Virus record (IMG/VR): IMGVR_UViG_3300029288_000066
Location: 128,001-192,000 of that record
DNA length: 64,000 nt
Strand: one strand, 5' to 3'
Source: a virus
Lineage: Duplodnaviria > Caudoviricetes
The translations under genes were made by a program, and so were the position numbers. The notes under the pieces are model-generated. The model made no database searches and was not told where the DNA came from. It saw nothing but the letters and a program-made list of their open reading frames with translations. Shown piece by piece: positions 10,398-49,212 of this stretch (the stretch's first letter is position 1; each line of letters starts with the position of its first letter).

Positions 10398-11267
10398 TTA
10401 TTTAAAAATTTTTTTTAATCTTATTAATTCTTTTATAACTTCTTCAGATTCTTTAGTTTTATGTTTGTTTTCAAATAATTCTATTTTTTTTAATAATTTT
10501 TTCAAACTTATTTGCGACTTTACACCCTTAGATTGATTTTTTATGTGTGGCACTAATCTACAATTCGCTGGATGTCTTATTATTATAGGATTTATTCCAA
10601 TTAAAAACCCATCTTTGACTGAAAAAACATGGTCTCTACTAACTCCTTTTAAATTATTCTTCTTATTTGTTGGACTATACCATCCGATTTCTTTAATAAG
10701 TTTTATATTAAATTCTTCTGGAAACATATTTAATGAAAATTTAAATTCACATTCTGCTCTGTAAAATTTATAATATTTTACCTTACATGATTCGCAAATT
10801 GTCTTAAACCCAAAAACTTCACCTCCTTTGCAAATTTTACAATATCTCATTTTTTTCTCCACGGGTTTCTTTTTATTTATTGCTTTTTTTATTTTTCTAC
10901 AATCCTCGCAAATTGCATTATTTAGAGAAGCTCTTTTGTTTATCAGAAGTTCTTTTTCACACTTCTTACAATAGGCCTTTTTTGTTTCTGAATAATTTAT
11001 TTTTCTCAGCTTATTGTTAAATGATGCTGAACAGGATTTAGAACAAAATATTTTATTTTCACTTTTCAAACTTTCAAAAATACTACCACAATTTTTACAA
11101 TTATTATGAACTTTACTTTCTTTTATTAAAGAAATTTTTAATCTGTGGAATTTTAACTGTACCGATTTTTTAGTTCTACCAATAGTTTTAGCTATTTCAT
11201 TACATGAAATATTGGATTTTGCCAACTCAACAATTTTATCTATTTCTTTTGTATCCCATTTTTTCAT
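10398..11267 (-). CDS. Zinc-finger HNH-type homing endonuclease inside tRNA operon
   Basis: Multiple CxxC/FCSKSC; RDH...HPANC...N. Confidence 0.7.
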   Translation of the reverse strand: MKKWDTKEIDKIVELAKSNISCNEIAKTIGRTKKSVQLKFHRLKISLIKESKVHNNCKNCGSIFESLKSENKIFCSKSCSASFNNKLRKINYSETKKAYCKKCEKELLINKRASLNNAICEDCRKIKKAINKKKPVEKKMRYCKICKGGEVFGFKTICESCKVKYYKFYRAECEFKFSLNMFPEEFNIKLIKEIGWYSPTNKKNNLKGVSRDHVFSVKDGFLIGINPIIIRHPANCRLVPHIKNQSKGVKSQISLKKLLKKIELFENKHKTKESEEVIKELIRLKKIFK

Positions 11268-18820: not shown

Positions 18821-19486
18821 TTATCCTAAATGATAATTGCTACCGCTTAATTGACTATTGATAATATCCCAGATGTCATAAGGGATAGAGTTGTCATCGC
18901 TTCCTGTTATTATAACACAGCCATCCAGCTGTTTGACAAGAGTGCTATTATAGTGATATTCCCATGGTTTTTTCCACCAATCTGGTTTTGTTTTTTTCTT
19001 CTCAATTTCTTTATATATTCTTTCTACTTCTTTTTGACGACTTTGATAGTCGTATTCCCCATCTTTACCAAAAGAAGCCTCTTGAATCCCGCCTTGAAAA
19101 ATGCTTCCATCAGAAATCAAACACGCACGAGAATCACCATATTCAATATAATGTATACGAAGATTTCTTAAAGAATCTGAGTCTTCATCATCACTAAACC
19201 AACCTTCAATAGTATGAAATTTATTGTTCCAATCTTTTTCCTTGCTTTTCTTTTCGCTTTCTTTCCACCTTCTGAATTCCTTGAGGCTGAAAATATATGG
19301 TTCTTCAAACACGTCCATAGAATAACTTCCATCAGTCATCATATTGTAACCGCTGATAATCTTTTGCAAGACTTCCTTTACCATTTCAATAGTTTTCTCT
19401 GTATTACAAACAAATAATTCAGTTGAACTATTGGTAATTTCTGAGACAAAAGAATGAATTTTAATAGTACTAAACATTTTTCCCAT
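18821..19486 (-). CDS. HSxVDxITNSS-motif protein 4
   Basis: KIHSFVSEITNSSTELF; C-terminal DDNSIPY. Confidence 0.75.
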   Translation of the reverse strand: MGKMFSTIKIHSFVSEITNSSTELFVCNTEKTIEMVKEVLQKIISGYNMMTDGSYSMDVFEEPYIFSLKEFRRWKESEKKSKEKDWNNKFHTIEGWFSDDEDSDSLRNLRIHYIEYGDSRACLISDGSIFQGGIQEASFGKDGEYDYQSRQKEVERIYKEIEKKKTKPDWWKKPWEYHYNSTLVKQLDGCVIITGSDDNSIPYDIWDIINSQLSGSNYHLG

Positions 19487-22058: not shown

Positions 22059-22332
22059 CTCATTATACGAGAAAAAACAAATTATGTTACAACTAACGTT
22101 TTTTTGTTGGGAAATATTTTTCGTTGATTTTCTTCTGACATTCTTGCCAGGTTTCTCCTTCGAATTCTTCTACGAATTCATATCCAGCATTGTTTTCTTT
22201 GTCAAACTTACGTGTCTTGCTGTGTAAGAGAATTTGGCCGCTTTCTTTGTTTTTATACACCTGGACTATCATAAATATAAATAGTCTGGGAATGTGGAAA
22301 ATAATAAAAAAATGTGAAAATTTTGTGTAGTG

Positions 22333-22406
22333 TGGACCCAGGAGGAATTGAACCTCCGACCTTTTGATTATGAGTCAACTGCTCTGACCAACTGAGCTAT
22401 GGGTCC
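22333..22406 (-). tRNA. tRNA(CAT), probably Ile2 from operon context
   Basis: Loop CTCATAA; lies in Ile/Lys operon. Confidence 0.8.
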
Positions 22407-22412
22407 TTGGTG

Positions 22413-22486
22413 TTGTGAAGGTCGGGCTCGAACCGACATATCTCCTGCTTATAAGACAGGCGCCGTCACCATTTAGCTACTCCACA
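22413..22486 (-). tRNA. tRNA-Ile(TAT)
   Basis: Loop CTTATAA. Confidence 0.85.
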
Positions 22487-22819: not shown

Positions 22820-22869
22820 AATTTTTTAATTCAAATATATGAAATTATATTTCAAATCTCAAGTTTTTG

Positions 22870-22942
22870 TCGGAATGGAGGGAGTTGAACCCACGACCTT
22901 TTGAATATCAGTCAAATGCTCTACCAACTGAGCTACATTCCG
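22870..22942 (-). tRNA. tRNA-Ile(GAT)
   Basis: Loop CTGATAT. Confidence 0.9.
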
Positions 22943-22949
22943 TTATTTG

Positions 22950-23023
22950 TGGACAAGGTAGGATTTGAACCTACGACCCCGAAGTTATCAGCTTCGTCTT
23001 CTAACCAACTGAAATACATGTCC
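22950..23023 (-). tRNA. tRNA-Ile(GAT)
   Basis: Loop CTGATAA. Confidence 0.85.
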
Positions 23024-23024
23024 G

Positions 23025-23990
23025 TTATAATTGTTTTCCTTTTTCGTATTGCTCCAATTCTTTTTTCCCAAGCATTATGTGATAATATCCTTCTGATAAT
23101 ACAGCTTTTTTCTTTGCTTCTAATTTATCTCTATCACGTTTTTGAAACCATTCTCCCTTCATTTCTATAACTAAATTTCTCTCTGGTAAATAAAAGTCTG
23201 TAACATGAATACTCTTTTCTCCTTCAAATTCATATTCTATTCTTAACGTTTCGTAGAAATACATTTCTTTTCTTTCATCCAAAACATCCATCATTCTTAG
23301 TTCATAAGAACTTCTGTAATAAACCTCCTTCCCATACCAAGTCGTGTGATATCCAGTTTGATATTTAGTATTTACATTTGGAATTGCTCTACCTTCAACA
23401 AACGCCAGTCTTAAAGACTTAGATGTTGTTCTTAAATTAATACCGTTCTTTTTAAAGAAAAAATGTGTTGTATTATACATTATCCCATATTCATTTCTTA
23501 TTTGAATCAGTGCTTTTTTATTTGTAAAATACTCTTTTGAAAGGAGTATTAAAGCATTTTGATTTGACACCTGTAAGTTTTTTTGTAAAACTCCCAATTT
23601 GTTAAACAGATTTTTGTATTGTATGAAAGAACTACATAAATTACAATATTTTTTTTTGTTTTCATTAGAAATTTCCACCCCACAGCTTAAACATATTTTT
23701 TTATCTCCTTTTTTTTCACACAAAGGTCTCGCAGATTTTCTACGATTTCTTTCTTCATCAGAAATATTACAATTATATCTTCCATTGTTTTTACCAGAAG
23801 TTTTTAATATTCTTTCAGTAGACTGTTTTCTTCCTCTTAATTTTTCAGACGCTCTTTCATAGGATTCTTCAGTTCTAAATTTTGATGAGTATGTTCTAGC
23901 GCACTCTCTTGAACAGAATTCTCCTGTGGAATACTTACTGTATTTTATAGCTTCTTTTTTATTACAACTTTTACATTTCATAACAAACAA
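23025..23990 (-). CDS. PD-(D/E)xK (TnsA-like) homing-type endonuclease inside tRNA operon
   Basis: YRSSYE...TDFYL...IEMKG. Confidence 0.7.
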   Translation of the reverse strand: MFVMKCKSCNKKEAIKYSKYSTGEFCSRECARTYSSKFRTEESYERASEKLRGRKQSTERILKTSGKNNGRYNCNISDEERNRRKSARPLCEKKGDKKICLSCGVEISNENKKKYCNLCSSFIQYKNLFNKLGVLQKNLQVSNQNALILLSKEYFTNKKALIQIRNEYGIMYNTTHFFFKKNGINLRTTSKSLRLAFVEGRAIPNVNTKYQTGYHTTWYGKEVYYRSSYELRMMDVLDERKEMYFYETLRIEYEFEGEKSIHVTDFYLPERNLVIEMKGEWFQKRDRDKLEAKKKAVLSEGYYHIMLGKKELEQYEKGKQL

Positions 23991-24063
23991 ATTTACTATA
24001 AATATACAAAAAAATTCGAATATTCGATGCCAGATTAAAAATATTTCAAAGAACTTGTTTTTG

Positions 24064-24136
24064 TGACCCAGGCGGAGTATGATTCCGCAACCCCATCATT
24101 AAAAGTGATGTGCTCTACCAATTGAGCTACTGAGTC
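24064..24136 (-). tRNA. tRNA-Lys(TTT)
   Basis: Loop CTTTTAA. Confidence 0.85.
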
Positions 24137-24141
24137 TTTTG

Positions 24142-24214
24142 TGAACCAGGTGGGAGTCGAACCCACATCCTTCGATTTAAGAGACCGAAGCTCCACCAAT
24201 TAAGCTACTGGTTC
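24142..24214 (-). tRNA. tRNA-Lys(CTT)
   Basis: Loop CTCTTAA. Confidence 0.9.
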
Positions 24215-24218
24215 ATTG

Positions 24219-24291
24219 TACTGCTGGAGGGACTCGAACCCTCAACCCACGGAGCAAAAATCCGTTGCTCTACCAATTAAGCTACAACAGC
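24219..24291 (-). tRNA. tRNA-Lys(TTT), atypical loop TTTTTGC
   Basis: Cloverleaf with G37. Confidence 0.8.
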
Positions 24292-24301
24292 GAAATGTTT
24301 G

Positions 24302-24372
24302 TGCATTCAGTTGGAGTCGAACCAACCTCTGCGGGTTAAAAGCCCGTGGCGAAGCCGCTTTGCTATGAATGC
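24302..24372 (-). tRNA. tRNA-Lys(TTT)
   Basis: Loop CTTTTAA. Confidence 0.85.
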
Positions 24373-24474
24373 ATTTTTACAAGTGAACTCACAACAATTT
24401 GCAGCTCACTAGTTACTGTTTTCGTTTACATTTAAATTTTTTCATTTTATTTTATCTTTTTTAATTTTTAACTC

Positions 24475-24514
24475 AAATAAAAACCCCCCAACTCATTTCT
24501 GCGCTGGGGGGTTT
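24475..24514 (-). terminator. Attenuator terminator of Ile/Lys tRNA operon
   Basis: AAACCCCCCAGC..GTTGGGGGGTTTTTATTT; 5' arm complementary to GCTGGGAG in leader. Confidence 0.85.
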
Positions 24515-24534
24515 AAGGTTTTTGTTATTTACAA

Positions 24535-24618
24535 TTATGCAAAAATCTCCCAGCCACTAAGTTTTTTAATCTTAATGCTAATAGATTTCTTTATAATTAC
24601 AGTTAACAACATATTCAT
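24535..24618 (-). CDS. Ile/Lys attenuation leader peptide MNMLLTVIIKKSISIKIKKLSGWEIFA
   Basis: 27 aa ORF; IIKKSISIKIKK matches downstream tRNAs. Confidence 0.85.
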   Translation of the reverse strand: MNMLLTVIIKKSISIKIKKLSGWEIFA

Positions 24619-24701: not shown

Positions 24702-25085
24702 TTATTCATTTATTTTTTTAAGTGCTTCAAAATATTGTTTCAATTCGTTTCGAAGAGTCATATATTCTTCATATTCTTCCAGCAGTTTTATTTTTGACTC
24801 TGCCAATGCTTTCAATTTAAAAGCTCTTGTTACAGGAGTATTGTCTTTTGCTTTTACATTTCCTTCTGCGTCAACATACAACTCTCTCCCGTCTACACAA
24901 AAATTGGTTTGAATATTGTATGTTCCTAATCCAGATAAAGAAGCACCAAGACTAATGCTTCCACTGCATATGGTACCAACCATGTTGTTTTCTTCTTCTT
25001 GCTTTGGAACAATGTCATATTCACTCTTAGAGAATTTCACAGACAATTCTATAAATCTCAAAACTTTTTCTATTTTCTTTTCCAT
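24702..25085 (-). CDS. Hypothetical protein
   Basis: 127 aa ORF. Confidence 0.55.
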   Translation of the reverse strand: MEKKIEKVLRFIELSVKFSKSEYDIVPKQEEENNMVGTICSGSISLGASLSGLGTYNIQTNFCVDGRELYVDAEGNVKAKDNTPVTRAFKLKALAESKIKLLEEYEEYMTLRNELKQYFEALKKINE

Positions 25086-25850: not shown

Positions 25851-25983
25851 AAAAAAGGGGAAAAGTTAGAACAGGGTTTTTCATGTAAAATCCTGGAGTT
25901 TAACCAGTACCCATTGAATTAAAAGTCAATTGCTCAACACTGAGCTAATTTTACGAAGTAGCTGTTCAGATTGCCACCTTTTT
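25851..25983 (-). ncRNA. Scaffold RNA copy 2 (Lys-type tRNA-like insert)
   Basis: GTGGCAATCTGAACAGCTACTTCG...CTGTTCTAACTTTTCCCC enclosing cloverleaf with CTTTTAA loop. Confidence 0.7.
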
Positions 25984-26189: not shown

Positions 26190-27035
26190 TTATTTTTTAT
26201 AATCTTTTAGCCATTTTCTAATTGCATTGTCAGAAACACCATATTTTTTGCCAACCGCACAATAATTTGTTTTTTTAATTTCTTGCATCAACTGTTCATA
26301 AGACGGCCTTTCAACCCTTCTTCTACTTTTTTTATAACAATCTATACATTCTTTTGCTTTTACATCCTTCTCTTTCCCACATTTGCAAACTCTTGTTTTT
26401 TCACTTTTCCTTTTAATGTTTCTAAAACAATATGTGTTTAACGTAGAATCACAATTTGGACATATGATTCTTAGATTTTTTAATCTATTATCCATATGAT
26501 TTCCATTAATATGGTCAAGAATTAAAATTAATTTATTTCCATTCCAATTTACATCCTGTCCACACAACTCACAACATTCTTTTTTTAAACCTTCATCATA
26601 CAATCTTTTTTTAAAATTAGAAGGTAAGCTTTTTCCAACTACAAAATAATATTCAATTGGGTTCTTTTTGCAACCAGTAATTACACCTTGTTCTTTTAAT
26701 CGCTTATACAGCTCTTTTTTTCCAGTAAAATGTGAAATGTCTACATTATATCGAGCAATATAGTTTTTTATTGTTGTAAAACTTGCAGATGCTGGATTAA
26801 TATTAAGATTTCTTAAAGCATCAGAATAAGAATATGCATTTTTAACAGCTTCTAGTATTTCTTTTTCTGAATATTTCCAAATTCCATACTTTGCAACTTT
26901 TAAACCAAGACGCTTTGCTTTATGAGCTACGGAATGTTTACTCTTGCCTAACTTTCGAGAACAATATATAGCACCATGCTCTTCATAATTGTTCTTAAGA
27001 AATAAAATTTCATTTTCTACCCATTTATATTTCAT
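26190..27035 (-). CDS. HNH homing endonuclease with C-terminal HTH
   Basis: LDHINGNHMDNRLKNLRIICPNC; GKKYGVSDNAIRKW. Confidence 0.85.
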   Translation of the reverse strand: MKYKWVENEILFLKNNYEEHGAIYCSRKLGKSKHSVAHKAKRLGLKVAKYGIWKYSEKEILEAVKNAYSYSDALRNLNINPASASFTTIKNYIARYNVDISHFTGKKELYKRLKEQGVITGCKKNPIEYYFVVGKSLPSNFKKRLYDEGLKKECCELCGQDVNWNGNKLILILDHINGNHMDNRLKNLRIICPNCDSTLNTYCFRNIKRKSEKTRVCKCGKEKDVKAKECIDCYKKSRRRVERPSYEQLMQEIKKTNYCAVGKKYGVSDNAIRKWLKDYKK

Positions 27036-27374: not shown

Positions 27375-27412
27375 AAAACAAAAAACCCAGACTCTTTTGG
27401 AATCTGGGTGGC
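27375..27412 (-). terminator. Attenuator terminator of Thr/His/Asn tRNA operon
   Basis: ACCCAGATTC..GAGTCTGGGTTTTTTGTTTT; competes with GTCTGGGTG in leader. Confidence 0.85.
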
Positions 27413-27431
27413 TTTTTGTTTTCTTATATTT

Positions 27432-27521
27432 TTATTTTAAGATAGACATATTACACCCAGACACACATGTATTATTATGTTTGTTGGTCTTCGTGTTAAT
27501 ATGTATACTTAAAGCTAACAT
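27432..27521 (-). CDS. Thr/His/Asn attenuation leader peptide MLALSIHINTKTNKHNNTCVSGCNMSILK
   Basis: 29 aa ORF; HINTKTNKHNNT matches downstream tRNAs. Confidence 0.87.
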   Translation of the reverse strand: MLALSIHINTKTNKHNNTCVSGCNMSILK

Positions 27522-27558
27522 TTCAATATTTCCTTTTTATTTAAATAGTATGATTTTT

Positions 27559-27650
27559 TTACTTTCTACGCAAAGGTACAAAAAAAGTTACATTAAATGC
27601 AAGTTTTTTTTCGTTTATTTTTAAAATAATTTTTAAGTTGTTGATTGTTA
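27559..27650 (-). promoter_or_regulatory. Composite tRNA-operon promoter (repeat)
   Basis: ~85 bp near-identical to 49835-49920. Confidence 0.75.
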
Positions 27651-32253: not shown

Positions 32254-34254
32254 ATGAATTACTTCTTCAATTCTAACAATAGGATAACTAATGAATTTTC
32301 TTATACAGCATCAACTACCAATCCAATAGGAAATATTACAAAAACATCAGGAATTGGCGTTTGGAATCTAAACGGAGAAAAAATTGTATCCACCAACAAC
32401 ATAGCAACAGAAACTATGACTGGAGCTGGTCCAACTTATTTGATGAAACTATATACAGATTCTTTTGACAAAATAACAGAATTGTCTTTAGGAAGTCTTG
32501 TTGACAATTTAAATATTTCTCAATTTACTAAAATTACTTCTCTCAATACCAATTCTTCTGGTAGTTTAACAAGCATTACAAATCCAAATTCATCTGCTGT
32601 ATTTACATTATATTCCGTAAACAGTTGCGACTTAATTGGGGAATTAGACATAAGCTGCCTGAGTGGAATTGGCGGAACTCTTTTGGCTTATGACAATGGG
32701 AATCTAACAAGCATCAAAAATCCAAATTCTTCTCAAAACATTGACTCTTATCAAGTGTATAACTGCAAATTAACTGGGGATTTAAACTTAAGTGGTTTAA
32801 CTGGTCTTGGTGGTGGATTTACATGTTATTCAAATGCAAATTTAACAAGCATCACCAATCCAATCTCATCTCGTAATTTTACTAATTATTATGCGTACGA
32901 ATGTGATTTAAGAAATTTAAATCTATCTAATTTAAGTGGGCTTGGAGGAGCATTTCGAGCTGATAAAAATTCCAATTTAACAGCAGTAACATTTGCAAAC
33001 TCTTCTGTTGAGTTTAGTCTTTTTTGGATGAACAATTGTGATTTAAAATCCTTAAATCTTTCTGGACTGAGTGCTCTTGGTGGAAATTTACAGTTGGGGT
33101 CAAACTCAGGATTAACTGCAGTAACACTTCCAACATCTTCTACAGTTTTTTCTAATTTTGAAGCGTCTGTTTGTGATTTGAGAAATTTGGATTGTTCTAG
33201 TTTGAGTAAACTAGGAGGAGTTTTTAGAACATATAACAACACTAACTTAACAGCGATAACTTTTACAAGCTCAACTGAAGTATTTACAAACGTCAGTGTT
33301 TTTTCTTGCAATTTAAAAAAATTAGATGTTTCTGGATTTAATAATCTTGGTGGATATTTTGCTGCAAATAGCAATGCGGCTATGACAGCACTAACACTTC
33401 CAATTTCATCACAAGTATTTACCTATTTTGATGTTTCGAACAACTCTGCTCTAATAGATTTAGATTGTTCTGGATTAAGCAACCTGGGGGGCTCCTTCCA
33501 GGCATATTCTACTATACTTATGACTGGAGTAACACTTCCGTCTTCTTCACAAGTTTTTACCGTTTTTGATATTCACAGCAGCAATCTATTTGATTTAGAT
33601 TGCTCTGGATTGAGTAATTTAGGAGGAGATTTTAAAGCCCACTCAATTAAAGATTTAAGTAGTGTTACAAATCCAAATTCATCTCAAGCATTTACTACCT
33701 ATGATGTACACAACTGCAATTTAATTGGAAATTTAAATTTAAGTGGTTTAACTAGTCTTGGTGGAGCTTTTTATTCTTATTCTAATCCACGTTTAACTTC
33801 AATTACAAATCCAAACTCTTCTCGAACATTTACCAACTATCGAACTTATAGCTGCGGCCTAGCTGGTGATTTAGATGTAAGTGGACTAAGTGGATTGGGA
33901 GGAAGTTTTTATGCTTATTTAAACACGGGGCTAACAAGTGTAATACTTCCAGTCTCCACACAAACTTTTAGTAGTATTAAAATATATGATTGTGCAAGTC
34001 TTGGATATGTAAATTTATACCCACTTTCTGGTTCTTCAAGCAACTATATTGATATTGAATTGAATGACAATTCATGGTCAGCAGCAATAGTGAACCAAGT
34101 TTTATATGATATAGACCAAATTGGGTGGACTTTAGGAACTCTATTTATAGCTGGTACAAATTCTGCTCCAGATACTACTTCTGGTGGGTATAATGGAACT
34201 GCTGCAAAATCAAATTTAGTAACAGTGAAAGGGTGGAGTGTCTTTTCAAATTAA
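32254..34254 (+). CDS. Leucine-rich-repeat-like structural protein
   Basis: ~46 aa repeats CDLxxLxxSGLSxLGGxF...NxxLTxxTxPxSS. Confidence 0.75.
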   Translation: MNYFFNSNNRITNEFSYTASTTNPIGNITKTSGIGVWNLNGEKIVSTNNIATETMTGAGPTYLMKLYTDSFDKITELSLGSLVDNLNISQFTKITSLNTNSSGSLTSITNPNSSAVFTLYSVNSCDLIGELDISCLSGIGGTLLAYDNGNLTSIKNPNSSQNIDSYQVYNCKLTGDLNLSGLTGLGGGFTCYSNANLTSITNPISSRNFTNYYAYECDLRNLNLSNLSGLGGAFRADKNSNLTAVTFANSSVEFSLFWMNNCDLKSLNLSGLSALGGNLQLGSNSGLTAVTLPTSSTVFSNFEASVCDLRNLDCSSLSKLGGVFRTYNNTNLTAITFTSSTEVFTNVSVFSCNLKKLDVSGFNNLGGYFAANSNAAMTALTLPISSQVFTYFDVSNNSALIDLDCSGLSNLGGSFQAYSTILMTGVTLPSSSQVFTVFDIHSSNLFDLDCSGLSNLGGDFKAHSIKDLSSVTNPNSSQAFTTYDVHNCNLIGNLNLSGLTSLGGAFYSYSNPRLTSITNPNSSRTFTNYRTYSCGLAGDLDVSGLSGLGGSFYAYLNTGLTSVILPVSTQTFSSIKIYDCASLGYVNLYPLSGSSSNYIDIELNDNSWSAAIVNQVLYDIDQIGWTLGTLFIAGTNSAPDTTSGGYNGTAAKSNLVTVKGWSVFSN

Positions 34255-40324: not shown

Positions 40325-41082
40325 ACCTTGAGTTTACAGGCTTTAGTGAGCCAACTTTCGGAGGATTATTGTTTCCCCGCCTTATCCACATGCCTTGCGA
40401 CACGTACCGACTCAATCTCGACTGCTATGGGCAATCACTCCTATCGTCACAGACTACTCTACTGCTACTTTAACCACAACAAGGGCGCCCCCCTGCAATA
40501 GCCTTTCACAATAATCCGTTGAACTTTGACATCCAACGTCCCCAATTCATCTTGCGATGTCAGGGTCTGAGAGACCTGTCGTCCATAACGCCAGCGGAAC
40601 TTTTTCTTTGCTTCTATTGTTTTTAGAGAATAGAGCGGTTTTTACCCCGCACCAAAGTATGTGTTTAATTAAGGATGTGCCGCTGGAACAGCTTCGCCAC
40701 TTTTGGCGACGAAATACTATACACCTTCTGCGCCCTTTTGCATCAGTACGCTTTCATCTCCGAATCCTTCCTCCATCGCTGGAAGCGAGAATCCCAAAAA
40801 CAAATGGAACACGCTCTATAGTCTGCTAAACGTTGAACATTATTCCTCGGTTTTTCCTGTTACCCCTTTCGGAGCTCAATCGCCTTAACACAATTTAGAC
40901 GATATTCCACTCAGCAGTTGCCCTTGCAGAACGTACTAACCTATTGTATGCTCGACTTCCTTGTGAAAGCGGCGAGTTATAAACCCCACCTTTAATCCTG
41001 GTCACCCAGTTTATTTTGCCTGCCCCTTTCGGAACAGACCTTGACAACCCGTAGGCCACCAGTGACAGCACACTGCCACAAA
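40325..41082 (-). ncRNA. Large structured ncRNA, GOLLD-like
   Basis: ~760 nt GC-elevated segment with no credible ORF, between TATCTTTG promoter/boxA and terminator 40290-40316. Confidence 0.55.
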
Positions 41083-41199
41083 TATTTTCAATATTTTAAA
41101 GAACTTTAAATCTTGGTTACTCACCTATAATGAGCAAAGATATATAATCTAAAAACAAAAAGCAACTTTTTTCTTGTTTTTTTTTATTTTTTTTTAAAA

Positions 41200-41282
41200 A
41201 GACGTAAACAGGCCGCTCAACCACCTACCCTTGCTTTCTTCCGAACCTGGGGGAGTTCAGTAGGAGCTGGCCTATTACGCTT
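41200..41282 (-). ncRNA. ffs: SRP (4.5S) RNA
   Basis: Helix-8 signature CAGGTTCGGAAGAAAGCA in long hairpin. Confidence 0.8.
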
Positions 41283-41567
41283 TTTAAGTTACATAGATAC
41301 AGCTGAACCATTTTTCAGAGTCAATTTAAATGCGAAGGGCTTCCACTCTTGCGAGTCATACACAGCCTCACTTTCCTCACATACTGCATCAGGCGACTGA
41401 ACCTGACCTTTTTTAATAACTTAAATTTTCAATATCTTAAAGAACTTTTGCCAATGTAAATATACAAAAAAAATTCCATTTACATAGGCTCATACGAAAA
41501 AAAATAAAAAAAGTTACGAGAATCAAATAATTTTTTCTATATTTATAAAAAAATTAGGTTCTCTATA

Positions 41568-43854: not shown

Positions 43855-44709
43855 ATGAATAAATGTTTAAATTGCGGACAGGAAACAAATAACAATAAGT
43901 TTTGTTCTATTAGTTGCCAACATAGATTCCAAAAAGCATCACAAATTGATAAAAGACTTGGTATGTTTTTAGACTTTACAATTAAATGCAATAAGTGTGG
44001 AAAGGAGTTTGTAGTTAATGAACGTGAAAATTTATTTCCACAAAAAGAAAAATATTATTGTAGTAGAAGTTGTGCAAATAAAAGAATTCATAGTGAAGAA
44101 ACTAAGAAAAAGATAAGCAAAAGAATTAAAGAGCTTATAAAAGAAAATCCAGAAAAATATAGCAATGGTGGTTATAATAGCGGTTCTGAATTACAAAAAA
44201 AAAGAGAAAAAATTGTAAAAATAATTTGTAAAAAATGTTTAAAAGAATTTTGTGTGCCTTATGGTAGAAGAAATAGGCAATTTTGTTGTAAAACGTGTGC
44301 ATCTAATTGGATGAAAGGTTCTTCTAAATCTCAATTAACTGGACTGTTATCAGTACAAGCACAAAAGGATATGAGAAGAAGTAAAAATGAGATATATTTT
44401 TCTGAATTATGTAAAAATCACTTCAATAAGGTTTTAACCAACGAACCAATATTTAATGGTTGGGATGCAGATGTTATTATTGAAGACATTAAAATGGCAG
44501 TTTTGTGGAATGGTAAGTGGCATTATGAAAAGATAACTAAAAAACACTCTGTCAAACAAGTTCAAAATAGAGATAAAATAAGAATTAAAGAAATTAAAGA
44601 ATATGGATATAATTACTACATCATTAAAGATATGGGAAGACAAAATAAAAAATTTGTTGAGGATAAATTTAACACATTTATAAAAATGTTGGGAACAAAA
44701 AATTCTTAG
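43855..44709 (+). CDS. Zinc-finger PD-(D/E)xK/Vsr-like endonuclease
   Basis: FCSxSC fingers; WDAD...WNGKWH...D. Confidence 0.7.
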   Translation: MNKCLNCGQETNNNKFCSISCQHRFQKASQIDKRLGMFLDFTIKCNKCGKEFVVNERENLFPQKEKYYCSRSCANKRIHSEETKKKISKRIKELIKENPEKYSNGGYNSGSELQKKREKIVKIICKKCLKEFCVPYGRRNRQFCCKTCASNWMKGSSKSQLTGLLSVQAQKDMRRSKNEIYFSELCKNHFNKVLTNEPIFNGWDADVIIEDIKMAVLWNGKWHYEKITKKHSVKQVQNRDKIRIKEIKEYGYNYYIIKDMGRQNKKFVEDKFNTFIKMLGTKNS

Positions 44710-44783
44710 TGGCGATGACGAGATTTGAACTCGTAACCTTCTCTTTATGAGAGAGATGTGCATACCAATTACACCGCATCGCT
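44710..44783 (-). tRNA. tRNA-Met(CAT)
   Basis: Loop CTCATAA. Confidence 0.85.
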
Positions 44784-46743: not shown

Positions 46744-46760
46744 TTTTTTATTTTTCACTG

Positions 46761-46846
46761 TTGCGGGTGAGGGACTCGAACCCCCGCTTTCCTTTTGGGA
46801 AAGTCCAGCTTATGAGACTGGCGAGATGCCGCTTCTCTAACCCGCA
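46761..46846 (-). tRNA. tRNA-Met(CAT), long variable arm, fMet-like
   Basis: Loop CTCATAA; TTTCCCAAAAGGAAA variable hairpin. Confidence 0.8.
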
Positions 46847-48351: not shown

Positions 48352-49212
48352 TTAATTTAATTTCTTTTCGTAATATTTAATCCATTTTCTTACTGCATTA
48401 TCAGAAACTCCATATTTTCTTCCGACTGCACTATAATTAGATTTTTTTAATTCTTCAACAAGTTCTATATAAGAAGGTCTCTGTGTTTTTCTTTGCCTAA
48501 TTTCATCACACGATTTACATCTTTTCATACCTTTACCTATTTCATTTCCACATGCACAATAATTTTTATTTTTTTCTTTAATTTCTTTTATTTTATCAAA
48601 ATATTGCTTTCCTATATTCTTTCCTCCATTAGTATTAAATGTAGCCGCACAATTTGGACAAACTATTCTTAAATTTTCCAATCTATTATCATTATGATGC
48701 CCATTTTTATGGTCAAGAATCAAACTAATTTTTTCCCCATTCCAAACTTCTCCTTGTCCACATTTCTCGCATATTTTTTGTTTAAGTTCTTCTTTATATA
48801 ATCTTTCTTTTAAATTTGTCGTATGATTATATGTTGAATTTTCAACTAATATGTCGGACAAATCAAATTTTCCAGAAACAAATCTATTACCTGAAATGCC
48901 AAAATTAAAATGTGAAATGTCAATGTTGTATTTCTCTATATATTTTTTAATAGTATTTCTGTTACCACAATGAGTTGTAATTCCCAATCTCCTAGCTACA
49001 TCAGTATAGCTTTTAGACTCACCCACAACTTTTTTAAATTTTATTTCATTGTATTTTTCATTCCTACATTCAAGATTAAGAGCAAAATGTTGTGCTTTAC
49101 CTCTAATAGATGTTTTTGTCCTTTTTAATTCATTTGCACAAAATTCACATCCGTAGATTGGATAATTCTTTTTCAAGAATTCCACGTCTTTTTCTGTCCA
49201 TTCTTTTTTCAT
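48352..49212 (-). CDS. HNH homing endonuclease (paralog of 26190..27035)
   Basis: LDHKNGHHNDNRLENLRIVCPNC; GRKYGVSDNAVRKW. Confidence 0.85.
   Translation of the reverse strand: MKKEWTEKDVEFLKKNYPIYGCEFCANELKRTKTSIRGKAQHFALNLECRNEKYNEIKFKKVVGESKSYTDVARRLGITTHCGNRNTIKKYIEKYNIDISHFNFGISGNRFVSGKFDLSDILVENSTYNHTTNLKERLYKEELKQKICEKCGQGEVWNGEKISLILDHKNGHHNDNRLENLRIVCPNCAATFNTNGGKNIGKQYFDKIKEIKEKNKNYCACGNEIGKGMKRCKSCDEIRQRKTQRPSYIELVEELKKSNYSAVGRKYGVSDNAVRKWIKYYEKKLN

Follow-up and report, generated by a model that had tools for sequence, protein, structure and literature searches.

Transcription attenuation by translated leader peptides is known from the trp leader, from the thr leader with its threonine and isoleucine codons, and from the leader of ilvGMEDA, which carries codons for isoleucine, valine and leucine. 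In E. coli the pheST attenuator uses a leader with phenylalanine codons for the control of phenylalanyl-tRNA synthetase. The general leader-peptide attenuation mechanism of enterobacterial amino-acid operons is outlined in PMC1183508, and the pheL leader serves as the Phe-codon leader for comparison (PMC3082878). As to phage tRNAs, the tRNA-Lys of phage T5 counters PARIS AriB, with T5 carrying a resistant copy (PMC11464382), and phage tRNAs likewise act against retron effectors (PMC11555353).

Here we describe a leader in a huge phage which, judged from its sequence and from RNA modeling, very probably acts as a ribosome-mediated attenuator of transcription, of the leader-peptide kind known from trp, thr and ilv, with tRNA genes as its output. 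In common with the thr, ilvGMEDA and trp attenuators, this Lys/Ile leader has a small ORF whose regulatory codons specify more than one amino acid, alternative hairpins (1:2, 2:3 and 3:4) and, ahead of the putatively regulated genes, a terminator of the intrinsic type. It is situated in the stretch of 64,000 nucleotides analyzed here (“the window”), which corresponds to bases 128001-192000 of one 228,886-bp virus contig with 33% G+C and a completeness of 82%; coordinates below refer to the window unless stated otherwise. ARAGORN identified 53 tRNA genes and a tmRNA in the contig, and the tRNA genes are all encoded on the minus strand and mostly sorted by amino acid. The TAnnTTTG box in promoter-like repeats (see below) suggests a Bacteroidota-type host. 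The tmRNA is permuted and has a 26-residue tag (ARAGORN; genome position 84078-84424, outside the window). Rfam searches also detected a full-length GOLLD RNA (40325-40729, minus strand, 186 bits) and a small SRP RNA (41196-41283, minus strand, 47 bits) between the tRNA arrays.

The leader ORF (24535-24618, minus strand) comprises 27 codons, has its own start and a TAA stop, lies on the same strand upstream of the putatively regulated genes and is kept as an ORF in all four phage lineages compared below. Its codons 8-19 (24562-24597, minus strand) form the regulatory run IIKKSISIKIKK with five Ile codons (ATT four times, ATA once), five Lys codons (AAG twice, AAA three times) and two Ser codons (TCT and AGC), which bears out the count of ten Ile or Lys codons out of twelve given in the original prediction. 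The run is cognate to what the operon supplies, i.e. four tRNA-Lys and three to four tRNA-Ile genes downstream. That the run also includes two Ser codons is a point against an Ile/Lys sensor. The original prediction had also cautioned that AT-rich DNA abounds in Ile and Lys codons and that this leader, taken alone, is statistically the weakest. This worry fails, because at least ten Ile or Lys codons are reached at only two places among 242,710 stop-free 12-codon windows (six frames, whole genome); one of these is the leader ORF and the other an unrelated poly-Lys stretch.

An intrinsic terminator (24475-24514, minus strand) starts 20 nt past the leader stop codon, between the leader and the tRNA genes. 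It consists of a 12-bp G+C-rich stem of about -23.5 kcal/mol and a U tract, and a terminator is found at this place in all four lineages. Four regions of the minus-strand transcript take part in the predicted pairings. Region 1 (24571-24590) pairs with region 2 if no ribosome is present and could act as an anti-antiterminator or pause hairpin; this long hairpin appears in the minimum free energy folds of both the full and the truncated transcript, in the former together with the terminator. Region 2 (24541-24561) is the putative 5' arm of the antiterminator, and its core UGGCUGGG (24549-24556) covers codons 21-24. Region 3 (24500-24514) is the 5' arm of the terminator and is also used by the antiterminator, while region 4 (24475-24495) comprises the terminator 3' arm (24481-24495) and the U tract (24475-24483). 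In the pairing between leader and terminator arm that had been proposed initially, GCUGGGAGAUUU and AAACCCCCCAGC are complementary at 10 of 12 positions, the remaining two being A-C mismatches. In RNAfold the core pairing joins UGGCUGGG to CCCAGCGCA by eight pairs with one bulge. The region 2 duplex reaches -14.6 kcal/mol, a value equalled by 8 of 1000 shuffled sequences.

For a scan of ribosome positions the transcript was ended just before the terminator 3' arm, and the ribosome was represented by masking the RNA as far as 12 nt beyond the codon in the A site. While the A site lies within codons 3-17, UGGCUGGG pairs with the terminator 5' arm; from codon 18-19 onwards this pairing is gone. 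The predicted switch point is the end of the Ile/Lys run. In silico, region 2 is accessible in each of the four lineages when the ribosome stalls on the run and is covered once the ribosome has come to the end of the ORF. Terminator and antiterminator are mutually exclusive, with the region 2:3 pairing present in each lineage and accompanied by compensatory changes. A purely thermodynamic switch was considered and rejected: the full-length masked fold never gives the antiterminator, which is seen only in the co-transcriptional, truncated fold. Wherever the ribosome is placed on the complete transcript, the antiterminator (about -12.5 kcal/mol) is less stable than the terminator (-23.5 kcal/mol), and any read-through must therefore be kinetic, as in the trp leader.

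Homologous leaders were located by means of ORF127 (24702-25085, minus strand), a conserved protein gene directly upstream of the leader, which served as a synteny anchor. Close relatives of ORF127 occur in three uncultured phage lineages, namely G001 (a 372-kb contig), L010 (the same as L018) and L011 (the same as L012 and L021). All three share a common layout of ORF127 homologue, small ORF, terminator, tRNA-Lys and then Ile-type tRNAs, the small ORFs being located at L001:6454-6537 in G001, L010:3896-3973 and L011:3009-3092. In L010 and L011 the gene directly behind the Lys genes is a tRNA-Ile(GAU). In G001, four tRNA-Lys genes are followed by two odd tRNA-like genes with GAU and UAU loops (C1:31004-31168, minus strand), which have no normal D arm, were missed by ARAGORN and score 37 and 29 bits in Rfam. 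Pattern scans of IMG/VR for additional homologues returned G001 only, and a metagenome scan returned only the known lineages G001, L010 and L011 (as L020, L018 and L021) plus five chance matches. More distant ORF127 relatives (P0006-P0010) are not located beside tRNAs; the contigs of P0005 and P0009 were left out.

The homologous runs read IIKKSISIKIKK, IIIAISKSIKIK and IINISIKNIKNIKINK. Their richness in Ile and Lys is kept while residues swap within this set, and the peptide as a whole is well conserved between the phage studied here (G000) and G001. The L011 run contains four Asn codons, though the Asn tRNAs of L011 lie upstream, which also speaks against an Ile/Lys sensor. The terminator sequence is different in each lineage, and the region 2 segment late in the ORF changes along with it. 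Regions 2, 3 and 4 read GGCUGGG, CCCAGC and GUUGGGGGG in G000, GAAUGGG, CCCAUUC and UUUGGGG in G001, GAAGGAG, CUCCUUC and GAAGGGG in L010, and GAAGGGG, CCUCUUUC and GUAAGGGG in L011. In a cross-pairing matrix the own-lineage pairs are the best of 24 permutations, and the observed region 2:3 duplexes are equalled by 1 to 21 of 1000 shuffles. In an alignment of the four lineages fitted with the covariance model R1, 89% of the cells of the 7-pair helix are paired and three of the seven pairs have changed on both sides; the covariation score is 0.45, compared to 0.05-0.17 with the partners slid. This alignment was fitted to the structure, towards which it leans; MAFFT placed the G000 terminator out of register. 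Covariation from four sequences is supportive, not conclusive. Ribosome scans gave one and the same logic of three states in each lineage: the antiterminator is predicted as long as the A site has not moved beyond the Ile/Lys run, and at no later position. It disappears at codon 18-19 in G000, G001 and L011, and at codon 16-17 in L010. A region 1:2 hairpin is seen without ribosome in three of the four lineages.

The first genes behind the terminator are four tRNA-Lys (anticodons UUU, UUU, CUU and UUU; 24063-24372), followed by two tRNA-Ile(GAU) (22869-23023), a tRNA-Ile(UAU) (22412-22486) and a tRNA(CAU) that is probably Ile2 (22332-22406), all on the minus strand. This inventory agrees with the four tRNA-Lys and three or four tRNA-Ile genes of the original prediction, as do the strong differences between the stems of the three tRNA-Lys(UUU), which had been called sequence-divergent. 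One of them (24218-24291, minus strand) has the anticodon loop UUUUUGC with G37 and C38 replacing the usual A37 and A38, which could affect its recognition by anticodon nucleases or modification enzymes. The Ile2 identity proposed for the CAU tRNA is plausible from its sequence and neighborhood: its nearest paralogue is the tRNA-Ile(GAU) at 22869-22942, with an identical anticodon stem, its orthologues in L010 and L011 come after Ile tRNAs, and it carries C4-G69 and C5-G68, which we take to be TilS determinants in E. coli. TilS (PF01171) was not found in the phage contig (82% complete), and the Ile2 tRNA would therefore depend on the host enzyme. Two other CAU tRNAs in the window differ in form; the one at 46760-46846 (minus strand) is 87 nt in length, has a long variable arm and adjoins tRNA-Tyr genes, and the one at 44709-44783 (minus strand) has an A1-C72 mismatch.

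An endonuclease-like ORF (23025-23990, minus strand), with weak matches to Phage_endo_I and DUF7487, separates the Lys from the Ile genes, unlike in L010 and L011, where both are directly adjacent. It is one of several ORFs of about 280-320 aa amid the tRNA genes of the window (10398-11267, 23025-23990, 26190-27035 and 48352-49212, all minus strand). Weak HTH matches were obtained for 26190-27035 and 48352-49212, the latter also with a weak HNH match, and no Pfam match for 10398-11267. These inserted ORFs are probably homing-endonuclease-like and would have split once-contiguous tRNA arrays. Between two tRNA-His genes there is also a tRNA-like gene (25884-25954, minus strand) with an 8-nt anticodon loop (CUUUUAAU), whose G001 counterpart (C1:33634-33706) was called by ARAGORN as tRNA(UUA), a stop-codon reader. 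A tRNA(CUA) is likewise present in the contig (genome position 196604-196678, outside the window), and stop-codon recoding in this phage is possible.

The spacer of 102 nt between the terminator and the first tRNA-Lys holds a second, Lys/Arg-rich mini-ORF of 10 codons (24413-24445, minus strand), which ends at a hairpin just 5' of the tRNA gene (24379-24413, minus strand) that is not followed by a U tract. A Lys/Arg-rich mini-ORF of 10-13 codons, followed within a few nt by a hairpin of lineage-specific sequence, exists in all four lineages (counterparts at L001:6629-6700, L010:4056-4115 and L011:3173-3240) and might serve in RNA processing or add another step of control. This arrangement, for which attenuation does not account, is one reason to consider that the leader senses Ile/Lys decoding but acts by another route, i.e. 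through Rho-dependent termination, through RNase processing at the pre-tRNA hairpin or as a report of general amino-acid starvation instead of tRNA supply; also, a stalled ribosome cannot tell a low tRNA level from low charging. We regard such a route as unlikely, since the conserved intrinsic terminator with its G+C stem and U tract and the mutually exclusive antiterminator alone suffice for classical attenuation.

Sister leaders were searched for by translating the DNA upstream of every tRNA cluster in the genome. Five further small ORFs were found, each followed by a terminator and each with a codon run matching its own downstream tRNAs (Gln/Arg/Phe/Val; Leu/Cys; Ile/His/Asn/Thr/Lys; Asp/Gly/Ala/Tyr/Met/Pro; Ser/Arg/Trp). 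When the six leaders are scored against the six tRNA sets, the diagonal sum of 60 is the highest, and a single permutation out of 720 attains it. The score of the Lys/Ile leader is 10 for its own tRNA set and does not exceed 4 for the remaining sets. A near-identical promoter-like repeat directly precedes four of the sister leaders, and the Ser/Arg/Trp leader has a variant of this repeat further upstream. The Lys/Ile leader differs from these sisters in that it has no conserved promoter module and lies within an operon, behind a protein-coding gene. Its region 1:2 hairpin is clear, whereas none was seen in co-transcriptional folds, without ribosome, of the four sisters other than the Ser/Arg/Trp leader. 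The Ile/Lys-sensor reading of the original prediction has thus gained support from all of the sequence-level features expected of an attenuator, from conservation and compensatory change in three lineages and from the five sister leaders.

The same operon possesses an outer gate (27385-27603, minus strand) with the promoter-like repeat at 27562-27603, a leader ORF at 27432-27521 and a terminator at 27385-27409. The run of this outer leader consists exclusively of codons for Ile, His, Asn, Thr and Lys; in each of the four lineages the outer leader samples Ile and Lys besides His, Asn and Thr codons. Between the outer and inner gates no other terminator is predicted. A TTG...TAnnTTTG promoter was found neither in the 83 nt upstream of the Lys/Ile leader nor in the post-terminator spacer in the four lineages. 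A sigma-70 scan is uninformative in this A+T-rich DNA, with 30 matches versus 20 expected. Because it has no conserved promoter of its own, the Lys/Ile leader looks like the inner, second gate of an Asn/His/Thr/Lys/Ile operon that would start at about 27603. Upstream of the leader, a resemblance to the 5' untranslated portion of the sister modules is retained, and the covariance model R1, built from the Lys/Ile leaders, weakly matches the Asn/His/Thr leaders (31 bits for the outer gate). For these reasons we infer that the Lys/Ile module is a decayed duplicate of a full module.

The absence of a canonical promoter, together with the position of the terminator behind a protein-coding gene, would also be compatible with a simpler view, in which the hairpin merely terminates ORF127 transcription, an unrecognized promoter within the spacer of 102 nt drives the tRNA-Lys genes and the small ORF takes no part in sensing. 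A weak sigma-70-like match at 24449-24476 points the same way, though such matches are common in this DNA and no conserved promoter motif exists in the spacer. Such a view leaves unexplained the conserved ORF with its rare Ile/Lys run, the way in which late ORF and terminator 5' arm covary and stay complementary in four lineages, and the five sister modules of promoter, leader and terminator directly before tRNAs, and we consider it quite improbable. That the ORF encodes a functional small protein, or arose by chance in A+T-rich DNA beside an ordinary terminator, as the 33% G+C content and the well-conserved G000 and G001 peptides might suggest, is hardly credible given a composition kept while residues swap within the Ile/Lys set, six leaders that each match their own tRNA set and only two comparable runs in the genome.

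Under the attenuation model, RNA polymerase, most likely coming from the Asn/His/Thr promoter at about 27603, would transcribe the 27-codon leader. If charged tRNA-Ile or tRNA-Lys is scarce, the translating ribosome would stall in codons 8-17 and cover region 1. Region 2 (UGGCUGGG) would then be free to pair with the emerging terminator 5' arm; the terminator would be blocked and the polymerase would proceed into the four tRNA-Lys and the Ile tRNA genes. With fast decoding, the ribosome would reach codons 18-27 or the stop codon and cover region 2, so that the terminator would form and transcription would end at 24475. If there is no translation, regions 1 and 2 would pair with each other and the terminator would form as well. 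The expected outcome is that, during infection, the supply of Lys and Ile decoders would be limited by negative feedback. Deduced parts of this scheme are that the leader ORF is translated, that stalling alters termination, where transcription originates and which physiological event acts as the trigger.

A broader and more tentative possibility, which we think doubtful, is a two-tier, demand-sensing circuit for tRNA replacement. The outer leader would open the operon in response to Ile, His, Asn, Thr and Lys decoding and the inner leader would re-sample Ile and Lys, so that divergent tRNA-Lys and tRNA-Ile flood the cell when host copies are destroyed, e.g. by PrrC- or PARIS-like nucleases, or outrun by the codon demand of the phage; the leader would in that case be a sensor of tRNA-targeting host defence. 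tRNA-Lys is a target of host nucleases, and a link of this leader to PrrC is speculation.

Phage tRNA genes are usually viewed as constitutive cargo, and this locus appears to regulate the supply of specific tRNAs in a closed loop. If the attenuation model is true, it adds a new class of output to one of the oldest known regulatory mechanisms, accounts for the sorting of tRNA genes by amino acid in huge phages and offers a testable handle on when and why phages need tRNAs of their own (codon demand, host shut-off or tRNA-cleaving defences). The nesting of a multivalent outer gate and an Ile/Lys inner gate suggests graded control, one tRNA set at a time, and short leader modules of this kind could act as portable sensors of codon-specific decoding capacity.

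Comparison with known regulatory RNAs places the leader close to several systems. Among cis-regulatory Rfam families, the best sub-threshold matches, both of which extend over the whole model, are His_leader (RF00514, 24.6 bits) and Phe_leader (RF01859, 24.2 bits), which do not reach the gathering thresholds of 49 and 55 bits, and the resemblance is one of architecture only. T-box elements also are terminator/antiterminator switches that report the state of a specific tRNA, but they bind uncharged tRNA directly and without translation, whereas the model for the Lys/Ile leader needs a ribosome; neither the gathering threshold nor a limit of E=1 brought up a T-box in the Rfam search, and no specifier architecture was seen. 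As in pheST and pheL, a sensor of codon decoding would govern a translation component for the same amino acid. In pheST this component is the synthetase, whereas here it would be the tRNAs which the sensor itself consumes, i.e. a direct feedback loop. The several divergent tRNA-Lys copies recall phages that replace tRNAs destroyed by nucleases; the PARIS and retron studies describe such tRNAs, while the Lys/Ile leader is a putative sensor controlling them.

Matching codon runs and tRNA sets are shared by the Lys/Ile leader, its sister leaders and leaders from two unrelated huge phages detected in a simple scan. In LR756504 (L025, 636 kb; minus strand of the locus), the ORFs at 18894 and 19202 are leaders with Lys/Gln/Tyr(/Asp) runs, and LR756501 (L026, 735 kb) contains a leader with an Ile/Met/Gln run (ORF at 32754). 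These leaders precede tRNA genes that fit their codons, and in each of them a terminator is accompanied by a segment late in the ORF that mimics the terminator 3' arm. A full-text literature search found no paper on leader-peptide control of tRNA genes, and the apparent novelty lies in a classical type of attenuation whose output would be tRNA genes, in its occurrence in a phage and in its nested, second-gate form. Enterobacterial attenuators control biosynthetic enzymes, and classical outputs in general are genes for amino-acid biosynthesis or aminoacyl-tRNA synthetases; at the present locus tRNA genes take their place. In further contrast to the enterobacterial attenuators, with which it has no sequence homology, the Lys/Ile leader resides in a phage and probably forms an internal second gate.
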